Assembly (NCBI GenBank): GCA_965228475.1
Contig: OZ245817.1
Location: 2,176,001 to 2,240,000, forward strand
DNA from: Myxococcota bacterium
GTDB lineage: Bacteria > Myxococcota_A > UBA9160 > JAFDDA01
Length of the DNA: 64,000 nucleotides
Reading direction: 5' to 3'
Below the pieces are notes generated by a model, which saw only the letters and a program-made list of their open reading frames with translations, made no database searches and was not told the origin of the DNA. The number at the start of each line of letters is the position of its first letter. Positions within the stretch are counted from its first letter, which is position 1. Made by a program: the position numbers and the translations under genes. Positions 5,153-57,184 of the stretch are shown here, in pieces.

Positions 5153-5395
5153 CTAGCGGGACCGCTTCATCTTTCCCTTGCCGAGCAGGAGCCAGTCGAG
5201 AGAAATGTTCTCCTTCATGGCCAGGGTGATGAGGAAGTCCGTGTGAGGGGTCGTTCCGTTCTCGTAGCGGTTCACGTTCTGTTGGAACACGCCGAGGTCG
5301 CGCGCGAACTGTCGCTGCGAGCGCTCGCCGCGCAGTTCGGACAGCCGGTCCGGGATTCGCTTCTTCATCCGCTTCATCTGCGCCGGCGACGCCAT
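5153..5395 (-). CDS. XRE-family helix-turn-helix regulator
   Basis: RLSELRGERSQRQFARDLGVFQQNVNRYENG...ISLDWLLLG is a typical HTH_3 pattern. Confidence 0.85.
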   Translation of the reverse strand: MASPAQMKRMKKRIPDRLSELRGERSQRQFARDLGVFQQNVNRYENGTTPHTDFLITLAMKENISLDWLLLGKGKMKRSR

Positions 5396-5504
5396 CGGAA
5401 CTCTCCTGAAGTCTTTCGCGCGAGCCGTCTTCGGCGACGGGGCGCGCGTTCGGTGGAACGGAAACGAGAACGACGAACGCGGCGCAGGGCCGCGCGGGCG
5501 CCGG

Positions 5505-5533
5505 AGTGTACGCGAGGCCTTGATCGTGTCCAA
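5505..5533 (-). promoter_or_regulatory. Putative sigma70-type promoter for the XRE gene
   Basis: Minus strand TTGGAC-N17-TACACT with an A-rich tract upstream, in otherwise GC-rich DNA. Confidence 0.35.
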
Positions 5534-5727
5534 CAGAATTTCGTTTCTTTCGAGGGGCGATCTCGCGAAGCTCGACGGCCGGCCGGTGCGGCGCGATGCT
5601 GCGACGCAAGGACGTGTCGACGGGGACGCGGTCCGCGCGTTCTTCGCGTTCCGGATGGCGCGTTCGGGCCCAACCGGGCCGCCCGCCCGTACGATTCGGT
5701 CCGGGCGGTGTTGCAGGCGGTGTCGCA

Positions 5728-6306
5728 GTGAGGGTCACCGGCGGACGCCTCGGAGGCCGCAGGCTCCGCGTCCCGCGCGGTGACCTCGTCCGCCCGACGG
5801 CGGACCGGGTCCGGGAGTCCCTGTTCGCGCGCCTCGGCGGGCTCGACGGCGCGCGGGTCCTCGACGCCTTCGCGGGAACCGGAGCCCTCGGCATCGAAGC
5901 GCTCTCGCGCGGCGCGGGTCACGCGGTCTTCGTCGAGCGGGCGAAGCCGGCGTTGGCCGTGCTCCAGGAGAACCTGCGGAGCCTCGAGCTCGGCGCCGTG
6001 AGCCGCGTCGTGCGCGGGGACACCCGCGGCGCGCTCCGCCGGCTCGGCCGCACGAAGGAGCGCTTCGATTGGATCTTCCTCGACCCGCCCTACGGCGACG
6101 AGACCCTGGCCGAGGTGCTGGCGCTCGCCGCGGAGGTGCTCGCCGGGGAAGGCTCGATCCTCGTCGAATCGGACCGCAGGACCCCCTTGCCGGAAACGCC
6201 CGGGCTCGCGATTCTCGACGCCCGTCCCTATGGGGACACGGTCGTCACCCGGCTCTCGCGCTCCGGTACCCAGGGGGCGGAGGCGCCCGCCAGGAGCCCC
6301 AAGCCC
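5728..6306 (+). CDS. rsmD: 16S rRNA m2G966 methyltransferase RsmD domain (no stop codon; reads in frame into coaD)
   Basis: VRVTGG, RPTADRVRESLF, LDAFAGTGALGIEALSRGA, FLDPPY. Confidence 0.85.
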
Positions 6307-6810
6307 ATGAGCCAATCCGACGGATCGCGCGTCGCGCTCTTCCCGGCCAGCTTCGACCCGGTCACGAACGGCCACCTCGACATCATCGAGCGGTCCCTGC
6401 GCGTGGTCGATCGCCTGATCGTGGGCGTGGCCCACAACGTGGCGAAGAAGGGGGCCTTCTCGGTCGAGGAGCGGCTCGAGATCCTGAACGAGGTGCTCGG
6501 CGACGAGCCTCGTATCGAGGTGACGGCCTTCGAAGGGCTGCTGGTCGACTTCTGCCGCGAGGCAGGCGCGCGCATCGTGATCCGGGGCCTGCGCGCCATG
6601 TCGGACTACGAGTACGAGTTCGAGATGGCGCTCATGAACAAGCACCTGAATCCCGACGTCGAGACGGTCTTCATGATGGCGAGCCAGGAGTATCTCTACG
6701 TGAGCTCTTCGCGCCTGAAGGAGCTCACGCGCTTCGGCGGCAACGTCTCGGACTTCGTTCCGGCGGTCGTCGAGAAGCGGCTGCGCGAGAAGCTCCAGCC
6801 CGGGCAATGA
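6307..6810 (+). CDS. coaD: Pantetheine-phosphate adenylyltransferase
   Basis: FPASFDPVTNGHLDII, RGLRAMSDYEYE, VSSSRLKE; AGGAG upstream of ATG 6307. Confidence 0.92.
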   Translation: MSQSDGSRVALFPASFDPVTNGHLDIIERSLRVVDRLIVGVAHNVAKKGAFSVEERLEILNEVLGDEPRIEVTAFEGLLVDFCREAGARIVIRGLRAMSDYEYEFEMALMNKHLNPDVETVFMMASQEYLYVSSSRLKELTRFGGNVSDFVPAVVEKRLREKLQPGQ

Positions 6811-48400: not shown

Positions 48401-48786
48401 CGCTGCCGGACCTGGCCGAGGACCGCATCGCCGGCCTGCGCTTCGACCTCGGTGCCGCCTTCGAGATGCAGGGCGACCTCGACCGCGCCCGCGCGGCCTG
48501 GGAGCAGGTGCTCGCCTTCGACCCGGACTTCCCCGAGGTGGCAGAGCGGCTCGAGAAGCTCGGCCAGGAAGACTCGACGCCCTCGCTCGGCGAGATGGAC
48601 CCCGCCGAGGGCGGTCTCGCCGAGGCCTTCGAGAGCTTCGACGACCTGATCGCCGAGGCCGAGGCGGACGACGACGACGACGACCCGGACGGTGACGACG
48701 ACCCGGGCGCCGGTCCGGACGGCGGCGGCGAGTCGGATGGGGACATGGGCTCGACCCAGTGGGGCCGCAAGGTCTCCTACGGTTGA
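45484..48786 (+). CDS. Large TPR protein, SgmX-like
   Basis: N-terminal TPR array, isolated central TPRs in very acidic linkers, C-terminal TPRs beginning THYDLGIAYREMGL, ends KVSYG. Confidence 0.75.
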   Translation: MGLNKRKVLDAAQKYLQKGNLDRALKEYQKVLDADPRDTNVRLKVGDVQLRRGKSEEAIEAYFEVAKQFMKDGFDAKAVALFKQITKIDEKRYDIYEPLAELYQRLGLLSEAMGALQTAAEAHQREGRKTEGLALLRKMASLDPSNTSTRMKIAQLLWKEELRDEALEEYDEVVAELGRQGDLEGAVRVHEQVLSDLPERLENLVGLGTLQLELNHAEQAEPPLLKATEVAVESVEAWEALARVHEALGRQKEFEDTWKTVAAIYKDRGDEDRAKEILQLYVTPQALDSTSDGLDGGLDAEAEAAAAAEADDLSGGQTIGDLAGDDDADDELEIGDGASLGADADLDAPEPEAPAAEAAPELDLDEEIDIELDDEVDAPEEAEGAEPVAPVAPAAAGEDTSSAAEAADPTQLLAEAGVYLRYSQHDKALGCFEQILEIEPKHREALEKLGETHCKMEAPEKAVPFFREAALEARTAGDSEEFDRLCELLRGVDEAAAEALAADALTPEPELDLDLELEFDTPSGDPELSGVADQAGLDVEVEMLLNEPEEAAEPPAPDFADPGEDDLELDVEADVAEGADVEPATADADAPEEELAPELGDEADEAPELDAAAEVELGEADASVGADEPAGDEEASAAPALEKKTGGVTLGASSQASDVSAEDLEEAEFYYRQGLYDEAEQLLQRLLEAAPGHPQVLLRLGEIAKSRGECPSSPVSEGVDFDRTEEETSPGLDAGALEQDAEESETLAAEDTLSGSTLEDLDALPDLDGPEAGPDDETLQAELSDALPELDESDEEGVSLEGATLPVEDTAASAESEAEPAEEPREEPARSPAPTAEVPASPVAAEPAAPVAAAGSDEGFDLAAELSGVFDDSTSGAEGEATLGGTTQAGFESIFQSFKQGVKETLGDGEEETHYDLGIAYREMGLFEDAIGEFAAAMTAPARKVDCLAMMGLCAMDLGRANDAVGHLEQALALPDLAEDRIAGLRFDLGAAFEMQGDLDRARAAWEQVLAFDPDFPEVAERLEKLGQEDSTPSLGEMDPAEGGLAEAFESFDDLIAEAEADDDDDDPDGDDDPGAGPDGGGESDGDMGSTQWGRKVSYG

Positions 48787-49688
48787 TGGAGAAGGGCGCC
48801 TTGGACTACCTCGAGCACTTCGGTCTGGAACGCGAACCCTTCGGCAACGACCCGCTCCCCGGCTTCCACTTCGAGACGCCCGAGCGCGCGATGGCCGAGC
48901 GGCGCGTGCTGCGCGGCCCCCTCCACGGCAAGGGCCTGACCGTCCTCACCGGGGGGTACGGCTCCGGCAAGACGACGCTCCTGCACCGCCTGCTCGATCA
49001 GCTCCCGCCGAACCGCTTCGACGCGGGCGTGCTGGTGCTCTCGGGCCGGAACCACGAGCCCGTTCCCTTCCTCCAGCGCGTGGCGAAGCTCTTCGGCGTG
49101 ACCGCCCCGAGCGACGAACGCTCGACCCTGCTCGGCCAGCTCGCCGGGCGCCTCCTGCAGATCCAGGAGCGCGGCCTGCGCGCGGTCGCGGTGATCGACG
49201 AAGCGCAGCTCCTCGAAGACGAGAGCGTGCTCGAAGAGCTTCGCGGCCTGCTGAACCTCGAGGGCGAGCGCGGCCGGGCGCTCTCGGTCGTTCTGTCCGG
49301 GCTGCCCGCGCTCGAAAACCACCTGGCTGCCGTGCCGGCGCTCGGTCGCCGGGTCGACGTGAAGGTCCGGCTCGAGCCCTTCGACGCGGCCACGACGGCC
49401 CGCTACCTGGCCGAGCGCCTGGCCTTCGCCCGGGGCAAGCCGGACATACTGCATCCGGCGGCGGCCGCGGCCGTCCACGACTTCTCGGGCGGGAGCCCGC
49501 GCGCGGTCAACACCCTCGCGGACAACGCCCTGTTCGAAGCCTTCCTGGCCGGCCGCGGCGCGATCGTCGTGGAAGACGTCGAGCGCGCGGCGCAGGCCCT
49601 GCGGTTCTCCGACGCCATGGGGGCCTCCGACGGGATCGAGACCCTCGAGCCCGTGGTCGCCGCGGAAGTGATCGCCACACCCGTCTAG
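48786..49688 (+). CDS. ExeA/GspA-family AAA ATPase
   Basis: YLEHFGLEREPF, GGYGSGKTTL, IDEAQ, G.PRAVNTLADNAL; ATG overlaps the upstream TGA. Confidence 0.85.
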   Translation: MEKGALDYLEHFGLEREPFGNDPLPGFHFETPERAMAERRVLRGPLHGKGLTVLTGGYGSGKTTLLHRLLDQLPPNRFDAGVLVLSGRNHEPVPFLQRVAKLFGVTAPSDERSTLLGQLAGRLLQIQERGLRAVAVIDEAQLLEDESVLEELRGLLNLEGERGRALSVVLSGLPALENHLAAVPALGRRVDVKVRLEPFDAATTARYLAERLAFARGKPDILHPAAAAAVHDFSGGSPRAVNTLADNALFEAFLAGRGAIVVEDVERAAQALRFSDAMGASDGIETLEPVVAAEVIATPV

Positions 49689-49760: not shown

Positions 49761-52442
49761 ATGCGTGGGTGGAAGCGGTCCGCTGTCCTTTTCGTTTCGC
49801 TGGGCGTTGCCGCCTTTCTTTCCTTCGGCCTCGCGGGGACCGGCCGGGCCCAGGAGGCGCCGCCGGCTCTCCCCGAGATCACCCTCGAGGGCCGGCGCGT
49901 CCACGTCTCGGCCATCCAGGTCAACGGCAAGGGCCGCTGCTACGAAGCCCTGCCCGGCGAGCGGCTCGATCTCCGCTTCGATTGGGTCTCGCCCTGCGAC
50001 GGGGACTGCGGCCCGACGAAGGCCCTCGCCGTTGGCATCCAGGGTCAGGCCGGGAGCTGCTTCGCCGAGGGCTTCTCGGCGACGGGCACGGCCGGGGGGC
50101 ATGCCGCCGGGGCGGTGCTCGAGGCGCCGACGACACCCGCCACCTACTGGATCACGCTCGGCGGCGGCGCCGAGTGCACGAGCGCCTCGGCGGCGCGCCC
50201 GAACGATGCGGCCCACGCCATCGCGCAGGTGACGGTGCGTCCGAGCACGGCGGGCTCCGGCCGGTGGCTCTCCGGTGCGGGAGAGCCGGCGCCCCAGCTC
50301 GGCCGCGAGCAGGACTTCTATCTCGACAACTCGGCCGACGAGGTCTACCGGCGCGAGTGCGGCCGCTGGCTTCCGGTCGCCTCGATCGCCGGCGACGTCG
50401 GCCCGATGGGCCCGCCCGGGCCCAAGGGCAGCCGCGGTCCGACGGGGCCGGCCGGCGAACGAGGTCCGCTCGGCCCGACCGGCCAGCAGGGGCCGGCCGG
50501 ACCGGTGGGCCCGATGGGTCCGATCGGTCCGCCCGGGCCGCGGGGCCCCGCCGGCCAGGACGGCGCGACGTGGCATACCCAGAGCGGGGAGCCGCCGGCG
50601 GAGCTCGGCCGGGACGACGACCTCTACCTCGACACCGAGTCCCGCACGGTCTACTGGCGACACGAAGGGAAGTGGGTCCCGGCGACGTCCATCGCCGAAG
50701 GGGCTACGGGCCCGACGGGCCCCGAAGGCGAGCGCGGCCCGGAGGGGCCGAAGGGGGAGCCCGGCCGCGCGGGCGCGACCTTCCTGACGGGAACCGGAAC
50801 CCCGGACCCGGCTTCCGGCGGAGACTTCGACCTCTACTTCGACAAGCTCAGCTCGGAGCTCTTCTGGAAGCACGAAGGGCAGTGGACGCGGCTCGCCTCG
50901 CTCGAAGGCAAGCCTGGCCCGCGCGGGCCGTCCGGGCCGAGCGGGCCGGCGGGGCCGCCCGGGCCCGAGGGTCCGGTGGGCGGCAGCGGAGCGCCCGGGC
51001 TGCCGGGGCCGCCCGGCCCGCCCGGGCCGGCGGGGCCGAGCTGGCTCGTCGGGAGCGAACGCGACGGCCGCGACGGAGACCTGCGCCTCGATCCGAACGA
51101 AGGGCGCATCGAGCGCCGCGTCGAAGGAAGCTGGCGTGCGGTCGGAAACCTGCGGGGTCCGGCCGGACCGCCCGGCCCGCGCGGACAGGCGGGGCCGGCC
51201 GGCGAGCGCGGTCCGATGGGTTCGCCGGGGGTTTCGGTCCCGGGCCCGGCCGGGCCGTCCGGAGACCCCGGGCCCCCCGGCCCGCGCGGCGAGCCGGGTG
51301 CGCCCGGAACGCCCGGAGCAGCCTGGCACGCCGGGAGCGGCGCGCCCGATGCGGCGCTCGGCCGCGTCGGCGACTTCCACATCGATGCGGCGACCGGGCA
51401 GGTGCTTCGACGGGAGGCGTCCGGCTGGCGCGAGGTCGCGACGCTGGCCGGCCCGCGCGGCGAGCGCGGGGAAACGGGAGTGGCCGGGCCGACCGGGCCG
51501 CAGGGTTCGGCGGGCGAGATCGGCCCGCCCGGCCCGACCGGCGCCGCGGGCCCGCCCGGGCCCGTCGGGCCGCTGGGTCCCCCCGGTCCCGCGGGGCCGT
51601 CCGGCCCGCCGGGGCGGGACGGGGCGAACTGGTTCCACGGCGAGGGGGCACCGAGCGCATCGCTCGGCGCCGAAGGGGATTTCTACCTGGCGCTCGGCGC
51701 CGGCGAGGTCTTCACGCGGGACGCGCGCGGCTGGCGACGGGGTGTCAGCCTGCGCTCCGCGGCGCGCGCGCCCGGGGTGAGGTGGCACGCGGGCGAAGGG
51801 AGGCCTTCCATCGAGACCGGCCGCGCGGGCGACCTCTACCTCGACCTCACGAACCAGGAGATCGCCCGGAAGGCCTTCGGTTGGGTCCCGGTGGCCTCGA
51901 ACGCCGGCCGCGAGCCCTCCGCGAGCTGGACCGTCGGGAACCGCTTCCCGCAGTCCGAGGAGGGGCGAGAGGGCGCGTACTTCCTCGACCTCAGCACCTC
52001 GACGATCCATCGCAAGAGCGGCGGCTTCTGGCGCGAGGTGGAACGGATCGAGGGGACCGGCAGCTGGGATTGGGGGCGCGGCGCACCGGACGCGAACAAG
52101 GGCCGCGCCGGCGATGCCTACCTCGACACCGGAACCGGCCGCGTCTACCGCAAGCGAGAGGGCTGGCAGGCGGTTCGGTCTGCCCCGGCCGAGGCCGCCC
52201 CGGCGCCGGCTTTCGCGACCGGCGCCGGCGTTCCCGGAGCCCGCACCGGGGCGGTGGGCAGCGTCCACCTCGATACGGAAACGGGCGTCCTCTACGAGCG
52301 CCGGGAGTCCGGCTGGGTGCGGGTCTTCGCCTTTGCGTCGAAGGCGGCCGCGGACCCAGGCCCCGAGCCCTCTGCGGCCCCGCGGATCAGCCCCGCTCCG
52401 AGCTTCCCTCCCGTGGCGCCCGCGCCGCCCCAGGGCCCCTAG
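49761..52442 (+). CDS. Secreted collagen-like repeat protein
   Basis: Signal peptide (GRA|QE), Cys-containing N-domain, five Gly-X-Y runs, ten W..G.G.P....G..GD.YLD......Y....W motifs. Confidence 0.85.
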
Positions 52443-53797: not shown

Positions 53798-54865
53798 CTA
53801 GAACGCGACCTTCAGGCCGAGCGACGGGCCGTGGAAGAGGGTCTTCCCGTCGTTGTCGTAGTTGTTCCCGAAGAAGTCCCCGGCCGAGCCGCTTCGCGGG
53901 AACTGGTCGGGCGCGGTGGCCACGTTGATCAGGTAGATCGCGCGGTAACCCATCTTCAGTTCGATGCCGCGGAAGAGGCGAACGGTCAGGTGGGCTGCAC
54001 CCTCGATCAGGCCCGCATCGTCCCACTCGCTCCGGCTCTGCCGGAAGGTGACGGGCGTCGCGTCGATGTCGGCGAACTCGTTGCGTCCATCGGCGCGGTT
54101 CGCGAAGGCGCCGCCCACCGCATAGAGGTCGAAGTCGACGAGGTCTTCGACGAGCGGGATCTCCGTCTCGACGCCGAGCTGAACGCCGATCAACGAATTC
54201 CGCGTCTCCACGTCGTATCGGCCGAAGCCGTTCGCGGCGACCGGGACGCCCGCGACGTCGTCGTCGATGGAGAAGAAGTTCAGATCCTCTTCGAGGCGCA
54301 CGGCGCGGATGCCCGCCAGCAGGTTGAAGCGGTAGTCGGCACCGTCGACCTCGAACATGCGTCGGTAGTTGATCTCGCCGGAGTAGAACTCGGAGTCGTA
54401 TTCGAGGTCGAACTGGACGGCAGCGTCGAAGTTGTTGTCGTCGATCCCGGCCAGGGCCCCGGCGTCCGGGTTCTCGAACGCGAACAGGGTGTCGCTGATG
54501 TCGCGGCGGCGGGTGTCCCGGTCGTGTCCGAAGCCGGTGAAGACGAGCTCGATCGAGGAGCGTTCGTCGAGCCGGATGCCGAGCACGCCTCGGCCCCCGA
54601 ACTCCTCGTCGTCATCGACGACGTCGTCGGTGTCCAGGATCTCGCGGAAGCTGGCGCTCGGCGTCGGCGGCGTCGGGTCCGAGAAACCGACCTCGACGCT
54701 CGGGGTGCCGTCGCGCTCCACGTAGAGCAGCTCCCAGTCCGTGTAGAAGCGATAGCGGAGCGAGCCGTCCTTGCGGATGTGGTCGTCGGCGGCGCGGGCC
54801 TCCGGCGCGGCGGTGGCGAGGAGCACGCCCAGACCCAGGGCGACGGCGAAGAAGGTTCGAGACAC
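53798..54865 (-). CDS. Outer-membrane beta-barrel protein, BBP7-like
   Basis: Signal peptide, amphipathic strands (YSGEINY, LAGIR...LEEDL, NSLIGVQLG, GYRAIYL..VA.A), C-terminal FHGPSLGLKVAF. Confidence 0.7.
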   Translation of the reverse strand: MSRTFFAVALGLGVLLATAAPEARAADDHIRKDGSLRYRFYTDWELLYVERDGTPSVEVGFSDPTPPTPSASFREILDTDDVVDDDEEFGGRGVLGIRLDERSSIELVFTGFGHDRDTRRRDISDTLFAFENPDAGALAGIDDNNFDAAVQFDLEYDSEFYSGEINYRRMFEVDGADYRFNLLAGIRAVRLEEDLNFFSIDDDVAGVPVAANGFGRYDVETRNSLIGVQLGVETEIPLVEDLVDFDLYAVGGAFANRADGRNEFADIDATPVTFRQSRSEWDDAGLIEGAAHLTVRLFRGIELKMGYRAIYLINVATAPDQFPRSGSAGDFFGNNYDNDGKTLFHGPSLGLKVAF

Positions 54866-54982
54866 GGGTTTCCCTCCAAGAAGTGCGACGATGATATCAG
54901 CCGCTCGCGGCGGCGTGCGACTCATTTGGGCTGTGGAATCGCGTGCGGGAACGTGGGGTTCCCGCTGCGCTAGCGTCCCGCG

Positions 54983-55507: not shown

Positions 55508-57184
55508 ATGACCGCCCGCTCTCGATCTCCCCGGAAGCCCCTCGGCGCCCTGCCGCGCGGCCTCGCGGCCCTGGCGCTGGCCCTCCCGCTCGGGGCGGGC
55601 GCTGAGTTGCCCAAGGCCGGAGCGGCCCGTCAGAGCGGGTCCGGCGCGTCCTCGGCTCCCCATTCGGCTCCGTCGGGCTCGGGTGGCGTCGAGGCGGCCG
55701 AGGCCAGCGCGGTGCAGATCTCGGGCCGCCCGAAGGTGGAGCTCCAGCACGGAAGCGGCGACTTCGTCTCCTTCCAGGACAGCGTGAGCTACGACGGAAC
55801 GGCGGACCTGCGCTTCCGCTGGAAGCTCGGGCATCCCGGAACGGTGAGCGCGCGCTGGGAGACGAAGTCCTGGCCGACCGGCGCACCGGGTGGCGCGCGG
55901 CCGACGCCCTCGGGTTCGCTCTCGCACGTACCCGCCTTCGGGAGCTGGGCCCCCGTGACGATCGACCTCTTCGAACGGCGCAGCAGTGCGGGCCCGGTCG
56001 GTCCGACGCGCTTCGAACTCACCGTCGTGGGCCTCGACGCGTCGGGCAACCCGATCGGGCAGCCGTCGCTTCCGGTCGTGGTGAACTACGCACCGCCCGG
56101 TTCCGGCCCGACCCAGACGATCCACGTCGACACCGTCGAGCTGCTCGACTGGACGCCGAAGAGCGGCGTCATGAACGGTCCGAACGATGGCAACCGCGCC
56201 CAGTACGGCCCCGATCAGAAGGTCGACCTGACGTTCCTGATCGGTCTCCAGAGCGAGAGCAGCGCACGGCTGTCGAACAACCTGATCGGCGCGGATGGAA
56301 AGGCGCTCGACGGCAACTTCTACACCTTCGTCGACCTCCATTCGAAGGGGAGCCACACGAAGACGAACTTCGTGACGATCCGCTGCGACGAAGGTCTCGG
56401 GAATCCGTACTACGAACAGGTCGCCACGGGGCTGCGCTGGAAGATGTGGCGCAAGAGCGACGGCGGCGTGCTCGCGGAGGGCGCCAAGACCTTTTCGACG
56501 CCCCTCGTCTGGCGCTGCCCGGGCAAGGACCAGCTGACGCTCGCCAGCCAGAGCCCGATGAGCGGGACGATCCGCGGTATCGGGTCCCCGACAGACGCCA
56601 CGAAGCCGGGCTTCTCCGTCGTGCTCGGGTACCAGTACCGCTTGAATTCGCAGCCCAAGGCGGTGATCAAGCAGATCCCGCTGCTGGCGAACTATCAGCC
56701 CGTCCCGAACGAATACTGGACCGACACCAAGGTGAACAACGGCGCGGGGAACGCGACCAACCGGCTCTCGGTCTACTGCCAATCGCAGCTTCAGCCGGAC
56801 GTCGAGGTGAAGCACCTCCGCTACACGCTCGCGAAGGAGGGGAGCGGCGAGGCGATCCTGCAGGAGGTCGTGCCGGTCGATTGGACCTTCTCCTGCAAGC
56901 CGCCGGTGCTCGTCCCCGCCGGCGTCCAGCAGGTCCCGGGCCTCCGGCGGATCGGGCCTTCCGGCGCCGCGAGCCAGGGGCGCGAGGCCATGGGCCGCGC
57001 GAGCGATGCGATGCAGAAGGTCGCCCCGAACCCCGCGGCGAGCGGCAACCCGGCCGCCGAGCGCATGCAGAAGGTCGTCCCGCGCGGCCTCGGGACGGCC
57101 CCGGCGCTGCCGTCGGCCGGCGATGTCCAGGATGCGAGGGACCGGATCGACTCGAACGTGCGGAAGAAGGAAACCCTTCGCTAG
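55508..57184 (+). CDS. Secreted hypothetical protein with an internal tandem duplication
   Basis: Signal peptide, GGAGG RBS, beta-rich domains, two related Cys-pair modules. Confidence 0.7.
   Translation: MTARSRSPRKPLGALPRGLAALALALPLGAGAELPKAGAARQSGSGASSAPHSAPSGSGGVEAAEASAVQISGRPKVELQHGSGDFVSFQDSVSYDGTADLRFRWKLGHPGTVSARWETKSWPTGAPGGARPTPSGSLSHVPAFGSWAPVTIDLFERRSSAGPVGPTRFELTVVGLDASGNPIGQPSLPVVVNYAPPGSGPTQTIHVDTVELLDWTPKSGVMNGPNDGNRAQYGPDQKVDLTFLIGLQSESSARLSNNLIGADGKALDGNFYTFVDLHSKGSHTKTNFVTIRCDEGLGNPYYEQVATGLRWKMWRKSDGGVLAEGAKTFSTPLVWRCPGKDQLTLASQSPMSGTIRGIGSPTDATKPGFSVVLGYQYRLNSQPKAVIKQIPLLANYQPVPNEYWTDTKVNNGAGNATNRLSVYCQSQLQPDVEVKHLRYTLAKEGSGEAILQEVVPVDWTFSCKPPVLVPAGVQQVPGLRRIGPSGAASQGREAMGRASDAMQKVAPNPAASGNPAAERMQKVVPRGLGTAPALPSAGDVQDARDRIDSNVRKKETLR

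Follow-up and report, generated by a model that had tools for sequence, protein, structure and literature searches.

Secreted bacterial collagens form a known class of proteins. Legionella Lcl, in the passages of PMC11162425 that describe it, is a Gram-negative collagen-like trimer without a β-barrel that is secreted by a type II secretion system (T2SS) and held non-covalently at the cell surface. In prophages of enterohaemorrhagic Escherichia coli, EPclA and EPclB are phage-fibre collagens with trimerization domains, and the sections of PMC3368898 that deal with EPclB describe a pair of collagen stalks with a globular repeat between them and a beaded appearance in electron microscopy. A review of prokaryotic collagens mentions interrupted collagen regions, and a knob module does not figure in its passages on them (PMC8968730). 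Here we describe a collagen-like fibre gene within a 64,000-nucleotide stretch (the window) of the genome of a Myxococcota bacterium (GenBank assembly GCA_965228475.1, contig OZ245817.1, positions 2,176,001 to 2,240,000). Its product, P0001, combines six Gly-X-Y runs with ten copies of a small repeat, the knob, and is an uncharacterised, conserved member type of this class.

We propose, with a probability of roughly 0.6, that the fibre protein is exported by Sec and assembles as a homotrimer into a beaded fibre some 100 nm in length, probably secreted by the T2SS, that acts as a surface adhesin or matrix tether. The Gly-X-Y runs comprise 20, 9, 15, 9+9 and 20 triplets, 82 in total, which corresponds to approximately 70 nm at 0.286 nm per residue. 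Collagen (PF01391; 114 bits against a cut-off of 27.2) is the sole Pfam family detected in the protein, and its Gly-X-Y runs flanked by non-collagenous domains are the hallmark of prokaryotic collagen-like proteins. The knobs are about 42 amino acids (aa) each; the fourth (51042) has no G-x-P loop, and a Gly-X-Y run directly adjoins knobs 2–6. The C-terminal tail has neither a barrel nor a sorting signal (inspection and Pfam). G+C content at third codon positions (GC3) is 0.89, compared with 0.89–0.93 in the neighbouring genes, and the codon bias is thus neighbour-like, that is, host-like. A ten-knob profile matched no further open reading frame (ORF) among the 38,873 six-frame ORFs of the 5.0-Mb genome. 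The promoter scan of the gene yielded no sigma-70-type site, and terminator-like matches inside the signal-peptide codons (3, with 1.2 expected) were disregarded.

The signal peptide was assessed by hand inspection and hydropathy, not by a dedicated predictor. The N terminus has a basic start, a hydrophobic stretch at residues 8–22 and a G-R-A/Q site, and by the same means no lipobox and no following transmembrane stretch were seen; all eight family members have similar signal-peptide-like N termini. The domain that follows was modelled with a pLDDT of 92 and is nearly all β. Compared with solved structures, the model matches assorted Ig-like sandwiches (best Z 7.0), none of which stands out, and a Foldseek search of the PDB gave nothing at E ≤ 0.001. 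The domain contains five cysteines (Cys60, Cys79, Cys83, Cys100 and Cys139), and a sixth, Cys200, sits in knob 1 and is invariant across three aligned full-length sequences. Cys60 (49938–49940) and Cys200 (50358–50360) are family-specific cysteines. These two could form a bond that joins knob 1 to the Ig domain, either of the same chain or of a partner chain. A profile of the N-terminal domain found 100 matches among 1.84 billion representatives, and a Pfam scan of 50 of them returned many cargo proteins of the type IX secretion system and lectin, HYR, PLAT or hemopexin proteins, suggesting that the domain is a mobile extracellular Ig-like module. Relatives of the domain (about 100 clusters of secreted proteins) show a CxxC-type motif, and the domain is also found at the C terminus of two nSTAND1 NTPases (P0188 and P0247). 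An unrelated signal-peptide protein, P0238, has the same Ig domain together with six knobs and a short collagen run.

The preliminary description of this DNA, made by a reader who had only the letters and their translations, had set out the same architecture: an ORF with about 82 triplets and ten motifs at given start positions, a Sec signal peptide without a lipobox, an N-terminal domain with five cysteines, and a Pro-rich tail without β-barrel or sorting signal. All of these readings were upheld, the signal peptide to the extent that hydropathy and inspection allow.

Among 1,447 mostly collagen-driven matches, P0002 (55%) and P0003 (43%) are full-length relatives; five metagenome loci and the same-genus genome G001 provide further ones. 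Orthologues are 50–57% identical to the fibre protein. A register of 19–20/9/15/9/9/18–28 triplets, with ten knobs, is kept in the four full-length close orthologues, and the more distant P0003 has approximately 11–12 knobs and 123 triplets. Third codon positions are the most diverged between orthologues (0.48–0.52, against 0.68–0.74 at first and second positions), and the gene appears to be under purifying selection. The knob array is clear in 1 of 60 relatives, with one additional weak match, and the knob profile was found in none of 300 other genomes of the phylum, with 24 candidates scored per genome. Because the gene is intact, conserved in register, most diverged at third codon positions and limited to close kin, it reads as a host gene that a single genus-level lineage has maintained.

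The nature of the knob is central to this proposal. A monomer model of the knob array (aa 594–862; mean pLDDT 70, pTM 0.45) shows four strands per knob and no helix in most repeats. We compared it with 48,161 solved chains, of which only the top rows reach Z ≥ 5. The trimerization domain of collagen XVIII ranks second (Z 5.1, r.m.s.d. 2.7, 53 of 57 residues aligned), and that of collagen XV lies within ranks 2–4 (Z 5.1, r.m.s.d. 3.9, 48 of 53 aligned). The N terminus of Geobacillus virus E2 ORF18 comes next (Z 4.3), followed by phage tailspikes. In multiplexins, the trimerization domain follows the triple helix. A like-folded trimeric prism forms the N terminus of a phage tailspike, the Klebsiella phage K1 lyase, in the passages of PMC8822698 concerned with it. 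Since the match spans nearly the whole of a collagen-trimerizing domain, and the same fold is trimeric in a phage tailspike, the knob is likely to be a trimerization clamp, as judged from the model. We would entertain only tentatively the further possibility that the knob is kin to the multiplexin (collagen XV/XVIII) trimerization domains of animals, unrecognised and widespread in prokaryotes and viruses. Sequence homology of the knob to Mtd_N and to PF20010 was considered and set aside, the profile comparisons having come out empty. A homotrimer prediction of aa 594–862 (three copies, 11-row alignment, controls not folded) scored 0.26 and 0.19, where the mark is 0.42, and was used neither way.

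The knob recurs well beyond this family. When 8,000 candidates were scored with a profile built from 11 knobs, 39 proteins matched, J-like phage central fibres, Mtd_N fibres and lipoproteins among them. Iterating a local profile over the retrieved proteins brought the count to 333 knobs in 73 of them. At least two triplets follow 103 of these 333 knobs. Twenty-one of the 73 proteins have a hydrophobic N terminus: four belong to the fibre family, three are cluster-mates of another and two are doubtful; the remaining 12 or so are unrelated exported proteins, nine of which carry knobs together with at least ten collagen triplets. Beads on a collagen string thus appear to be a widespread design, and the locus holds a single fibre gene of this unnamed type, not an undescribed system of several genes; the preliminary description had seen in it the strongest candidate for an undescribed system. 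Metagenome contigs encode phage J-like central tail fibre proteins (P0121–P0133) with 6–12 tandem knobs and almost no collagen.

That similar modules occur in phage fibres, also part of that description, was confirmed. The tail fibre of Erwinia phage Hena1 (YP_009854379.1) was matched by tblastn at E 3e-9, and the W-x2-G-x-G-x-P...G-x2-GD-x-YL motif and short Gly-X-Y links can be seen in it directly. Of 25 PHROG matches to the fibre protein, most lie over collagen stretches; with collagen removed, the tail fibre family PHROG 3904 is the sole, weak match (E 0.0024). In BFVD, 81 matches reach E ≤ 0.001, with collagen-like proteins of giant viruses and tail fibres of phages at the top. The knob shared with phage fibres bears out one half of the idea of a domesticated tail fibre; domestication itself is one possibility. 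As collagen-like proteins of giant viruses and numerous unrelated exported proteins of bacteria contain the same knob, a phage may have been the donor but other routes are also possible, and transfer may have gone in either direction. In the Pfam scan of the fibre protein the knob had no match, and word searches of the open literature retrieved no paper on the fibre family or naming the knob, which leaves its absence from print unproven. Some members of the knob family may already fall under PF26696, a more recent Pfam entry: this is the sole precomputed label on the knob-rich P0144 and is also on P0006, and it is absent from P0001. PDB sequences were searched with profiles of the knob and of the N-terminal domain, with P0129 and with the Hena1 repeats, and no match fell below E 0.3. 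Leads towards Mtd_N are weak (6x3m, E 0.31; ESM Atlas, 0.76), and the knob profile scores two Mtd_N N termini no better than shuffles. In the ESM Atlas, the knob array reached a best score of 0.86 with unnamed, partly viral clusters, a lead only, and a second query led to collagen clusters.

We suggest the following model for the fibre. After Sec export, disulfides would form in the Ig domain. Three chains would meet at the C-terminal tandem of five knobs, and zipping would proceed from there to the N terminus through the six triple-helical runs. Each internal knob would act as a small β trimerization clamp of the collagen XV/XVIII or phage-fibre type, re-registering the chains and stabilising runs as short as nine triplets. 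Without hydroxyproline, runs of nine triplets would be marginal. The ordinary T2SS would secrete the fibre, and its disulfide-bonded Ig domains, the knob stack or both would hold the cell surface or a ligand. Non-covalent attachment is proposed because the protein has no anchor.

Several observations weigh against this proposal. An iridovirus capsid protein tops the structure search with the knob (Z 6.1), and the Z of 5.1 for the collagen domains falls in the range that the search tool calls common, for a model of pLDDT 70 and pTM 0.45. The multiplexin family PF20010 (Collagen_trimer) did not match nine knobs or nine knob-rich proteins at E values up to 10, nor the fibre gene itself, and there was no Pfam match to the Mtd_N/HylP N-terminal knob (PF18454). 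Foldseek of the knob array on the PDB was unconvincing: it returned β-propellers at a TM-score of about 0.1 and 8hif_y4 at E 0.02, a protein for which the passages of PMC10090177 that treat it make no collagen or trimer link. The TM-scores of the BFVD matches are low (0.13–0.28), and some of them may be due to the ten collagen triplets that the model includes. The fibre may be retained in the periplasm, and a ligand, an anchorage and T2SS dependence are proposals. Finally, in all six loci in which the upstream region can be viewed, no more than 6 kb separates the fibre gene from exeA and the two genes have the same orientation, so that their co-transcription is possible.

A different account, which we regard as improbable, is that the fibre forms the structural core of a small genus-specific surface-coat cassette in which a GT4 glycosyltransferase would glycosylate it and an S8 subtilase-domain protein would process or scaffold it, the window copy being reduced. 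The product would then be a coat or matrix bearing glycans and not a simple adhesin. A GT4 gene does lie between exeA and the fibre gene in five of the six loci (G001, L013, L014, L015 and L016), an S8-domain gene follows the fibre gene in G001 and L014, and glycosylated bacterial collagens exist, BclA being named in PMC8968730, in the passages on such proteins. Yet the fibre gene is intact in the window genome, where a GT4 orthologue is absent at E<1e-8 and the S8 domain is missing from the downstream partner. Unrelated genes are inserted on either side of the fibre gene in several loci: TetR, β-helix and cytochrome c genes precede it in G001 and L016, and an opposite-strand gene lies behind it in L013, L014 and L017. 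The S8 domain (about 360 aa) is kept in the orthologues of G001 and L014 (about 890 aa), with a catalytic Ser motif that looks degenerate in the former and is unmatched in the latter; these proteins may be pseudo-proteases. All of the loci, moreover, are close kin. The downstream protein had been read as DUF4384-like; it has no DUF4384 match and turns out to be a shortened orthologue of the S8-domain protein. It is a possible companion of the fibre. In L010 the GT4 gene is at 5236–6642 (−). TetR and β-helix/cytochrome blocks occur elsewhere in the window genome (C1 287822–291576 and 4869143–4872108, with cytochrome c at the first).

We consider it unlikely that, as the preliminary description supposed, the adjacent ExeA-like ATPase or a type IV pilus machine exports or displays the fibre, for example as a pilus-associated adhesin. 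The gene begins 72 bp behind the exeA stop on the same strand, and the proximity noted above extends to all six loci. Across the lineage, the co-occurrence with sgmX–exeA–pil expected of a pilus accessory is not seen: ExeA orthologues are present in 47 of 60 relatives, against the single one with a clear fibre. The best 30 matches of ExeA include 28 loci outside the genus (L021–L048), of which 27 have sgmX upstream and 18 have a co-oriented tRNA-Gly(CCC) directly behind exeA; collagen is next to exeA in none of them (flanks of up to 1.5 kb examined). Linkage to exeA is kept within the genus and, over those flanks, is not seen at the 28 loci outside it. In the window genome, the tRNA-Gly(CCC) is displaced to 24 kb downstream of exeA and inverted (C1 2249746–2249821, −), which suggests that the fibre block came to lie beside exeA through an inversion or an insertion. 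The position directly behind the pilus locus holds for the window genome only, among the loci seen, GT4 intervening in five of six, and the six genus loci count as one event because they are close kin (ExeA 63–67% identical). The fibre has no pilin-type N terminus, and a separate T2SS is encoded at about 2.02 Mb, some 200 kb away (gspD and gspE over cut-offs). In Myxococcus xanthus, the gene after sgmX is one that we take, from its position, to be the orthologue of ExeA. Inactivating it left pilus motility unaffected, in the passages of PMC7668184 on this gene, and the part of bioRxiv 10.64898/2026.08.28.747804 on insertions downstream of sgmX gives no developmental defect. The position of the fibre gene behind pilus genes is thus likely to be a by-product of genome rearrangement. 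In the reading that we prefer, of a secreted beaded fibre, the block would have arrived behind sgmX–exeA once, in the ancestor of the genus, at a rearrangement-prone tRNA-Gly site, and would function independently of the pilus.

It is very unlikely that the protein is a phage or tailocin fibre captured in the recent past that serves as passenger or decoy without settled host function, a reading already largely refuted by conservation: the knob is present in phage fibres, the site adjoins a tRNA integration hotspot in relatives and the distribution is narrow, but the protein has a signal peptide and host-like GC3, is intact and seemingly under purifying selection across orthologues about 57% identical, has N-domain relatives among cellular secreted proteins, lies among scanned neighbours free of phage genes, and, through P0003, showed no relative in viral contigs in a scan that senses close relatives only.

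The neighbour scan with Pfam and NCBIfam covered the genes at 37.9–57.2 kb of the window; for these, the earlier statement that no phage genes lie nearby stands, the rest of the window being outside the scan. Upstream of the fibre gene are pilQ, aroK, aroB, a TPR gene, a small gene, aroQ, lipoate ligase, an SgmX-like TPR protein and the ExeA-like ATPase, an order shared with G001. The small gene, without a Pfam match, was read as possibly roadblock-type. Downstream, a putative β-barrel porin (BBP7, over cut-off) at 53801–54925 (−) is convergent with the fibre–partner pair, and 55508–57184 encodes a 558-aa signal-peptide protein with no Pfam or NCBIfam match. Integrase-like ORFs were recognised by reading near exeA/tRNA-Gly(CCC) in four loci. 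The whole genome gave six secretin-family and four long GspE/PilB-like ATPase matches, which would belong to the T2SS, the type IV pilus and further systems. Features are listed in Table 1.

Table 1. Features of the fibre gene and its immediate neighbours (window coordinates)
Feature	Coordinates	Strand	Basis and remarks
ExeA-like AAA_22 ATPase of the conserved sgmX locus	48759..49688	+	Pfam; neighbour, likely outside the feature
Collagen-like fibre gene P0001	49761..52442	+	Intact ORF, 893 aa, ATG start, no internal stop
Predicted Sec signal peptide, aa 1–30	49761..49850	+	Hydropathy and inspection; no lipobox
Cys-containing Ig-like β-sandwich, aa 31–161	49851..50243	+	Predicted structure; no Pfam name
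Knob 1, carries Cys200 (start 50265)	50265..50390	+	Repeat motif
Six Gly-X-Y runs alternating with knobs 2–5 (starts 50571, 50781, 51042, 51324)	50391..51629	+	Triplet counts; register in orthologues
Knobs 6–10 in tandem without collagen (starts 51630, 51783, 51927, 52065, 52212)	51630..52337	+	Motif; four predicted strands per knob
Pro/Ala-rich tail	52338..52442	+	Length varies between orthologues; missing in P0003
Downstream signal-peptide gene, 433 aa	52465..53766	+	Orthologue of S8 subtilase-domain protein, S8 domain missing

The main value of the locus lies in the knob, a frequent module that has no name in the libraries scanned and that phage fibres, collagen-like proteins of giant viruses and exported proteins of bacteria have in common. 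Should the knob be a trimerization clamp with the collagen XV/XVIII fold, it would explain the register of short, unhydroxylated triple helices, link the assembly domains of animal and microbial collagens and offer a small foldon-like tool for recombinant collagen. On the tentative reading of kinship with the multiplexin domains, short unhydroxylated runs joined by such a repeatable clamp would be enough for bacteria, phages and giant viruses to make collagen fibres that are long and interrupted. The fibre protein would then be the bacterial equivalent, with ten clamps, of a matrix collagen that is interrupted many times, and in relatives it would come with a glycosyltransferase of its own and a subtilase-like partner. 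The locus itself illustrates how rearrangement at a tRNA site can, as a by-product, leave a gene beside a conserved pilus cluster.

How does the fibre protein compare with described systems? The multiplexin trimerization domains of collagen XV/XVIII (PDB 3n3f and 9bnb; PF20010) are, like the knob, small β domains of about 50 aa; the knob differs in having no sequence match to them, no helix in most repeats and ten copies per chain, and homology between the two is tentative. The streptococcal adhesins Scl1 and Scl2 and the YadA-like trimeric autotransporter collagens are also surface collagen-like adhesins, and their matches to the fibre protein arise from the Gly-X-Y runs. It falls far below the cut-offs of NF038330 and NF038329 (134.5 against 325; 66.3 against 400) and has no LPXTG anchor; the YadA anchor barrel is likewise absent, Collagen being the only Pfam match and the tail Pro-rich. 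Fibres of extracellular contractile injection systems with collagen shafts, as presented in part of PMC12923769, differ from it. The collagen-like fibres of Hena1, Orpheovirus and Megavirus bear knobs, seen directly as the motif in Hena1 and as BFVD structural matches in the others; these viral fibres have other terminal domains, and Hena1 shows no signal peptide. Thus the repeat is a phage-fibre module, whereas the housekeeping neighbours and signal-peptide-like start of the fibre gene are not those of a virion fibre. EPclB is the closest look-alike, the bead of our protein being predicted from sequence. EPclA and EPclB reside in prophages and use PfN, PCoil, Pf2 and PfC, none of which Pfam detects in the fibre protein; unlike them, it has a signal peptide and a different bead. 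Lcl is the closest functional analogue, sharing the T2SS route by analogy, and the fibre protein is not a member of its family (NF046116; 72.8 against a cut-off of 500). In the passages that describe it, Lcl combines a single collagen region with an amphipathic helix at the N terminus, which serves as anchor, and a single head at the C terminus; by contrast, the fibre protein joins an Ig-like domain at the N terminus to six Gly-X-Y runs and ten internal knobs.

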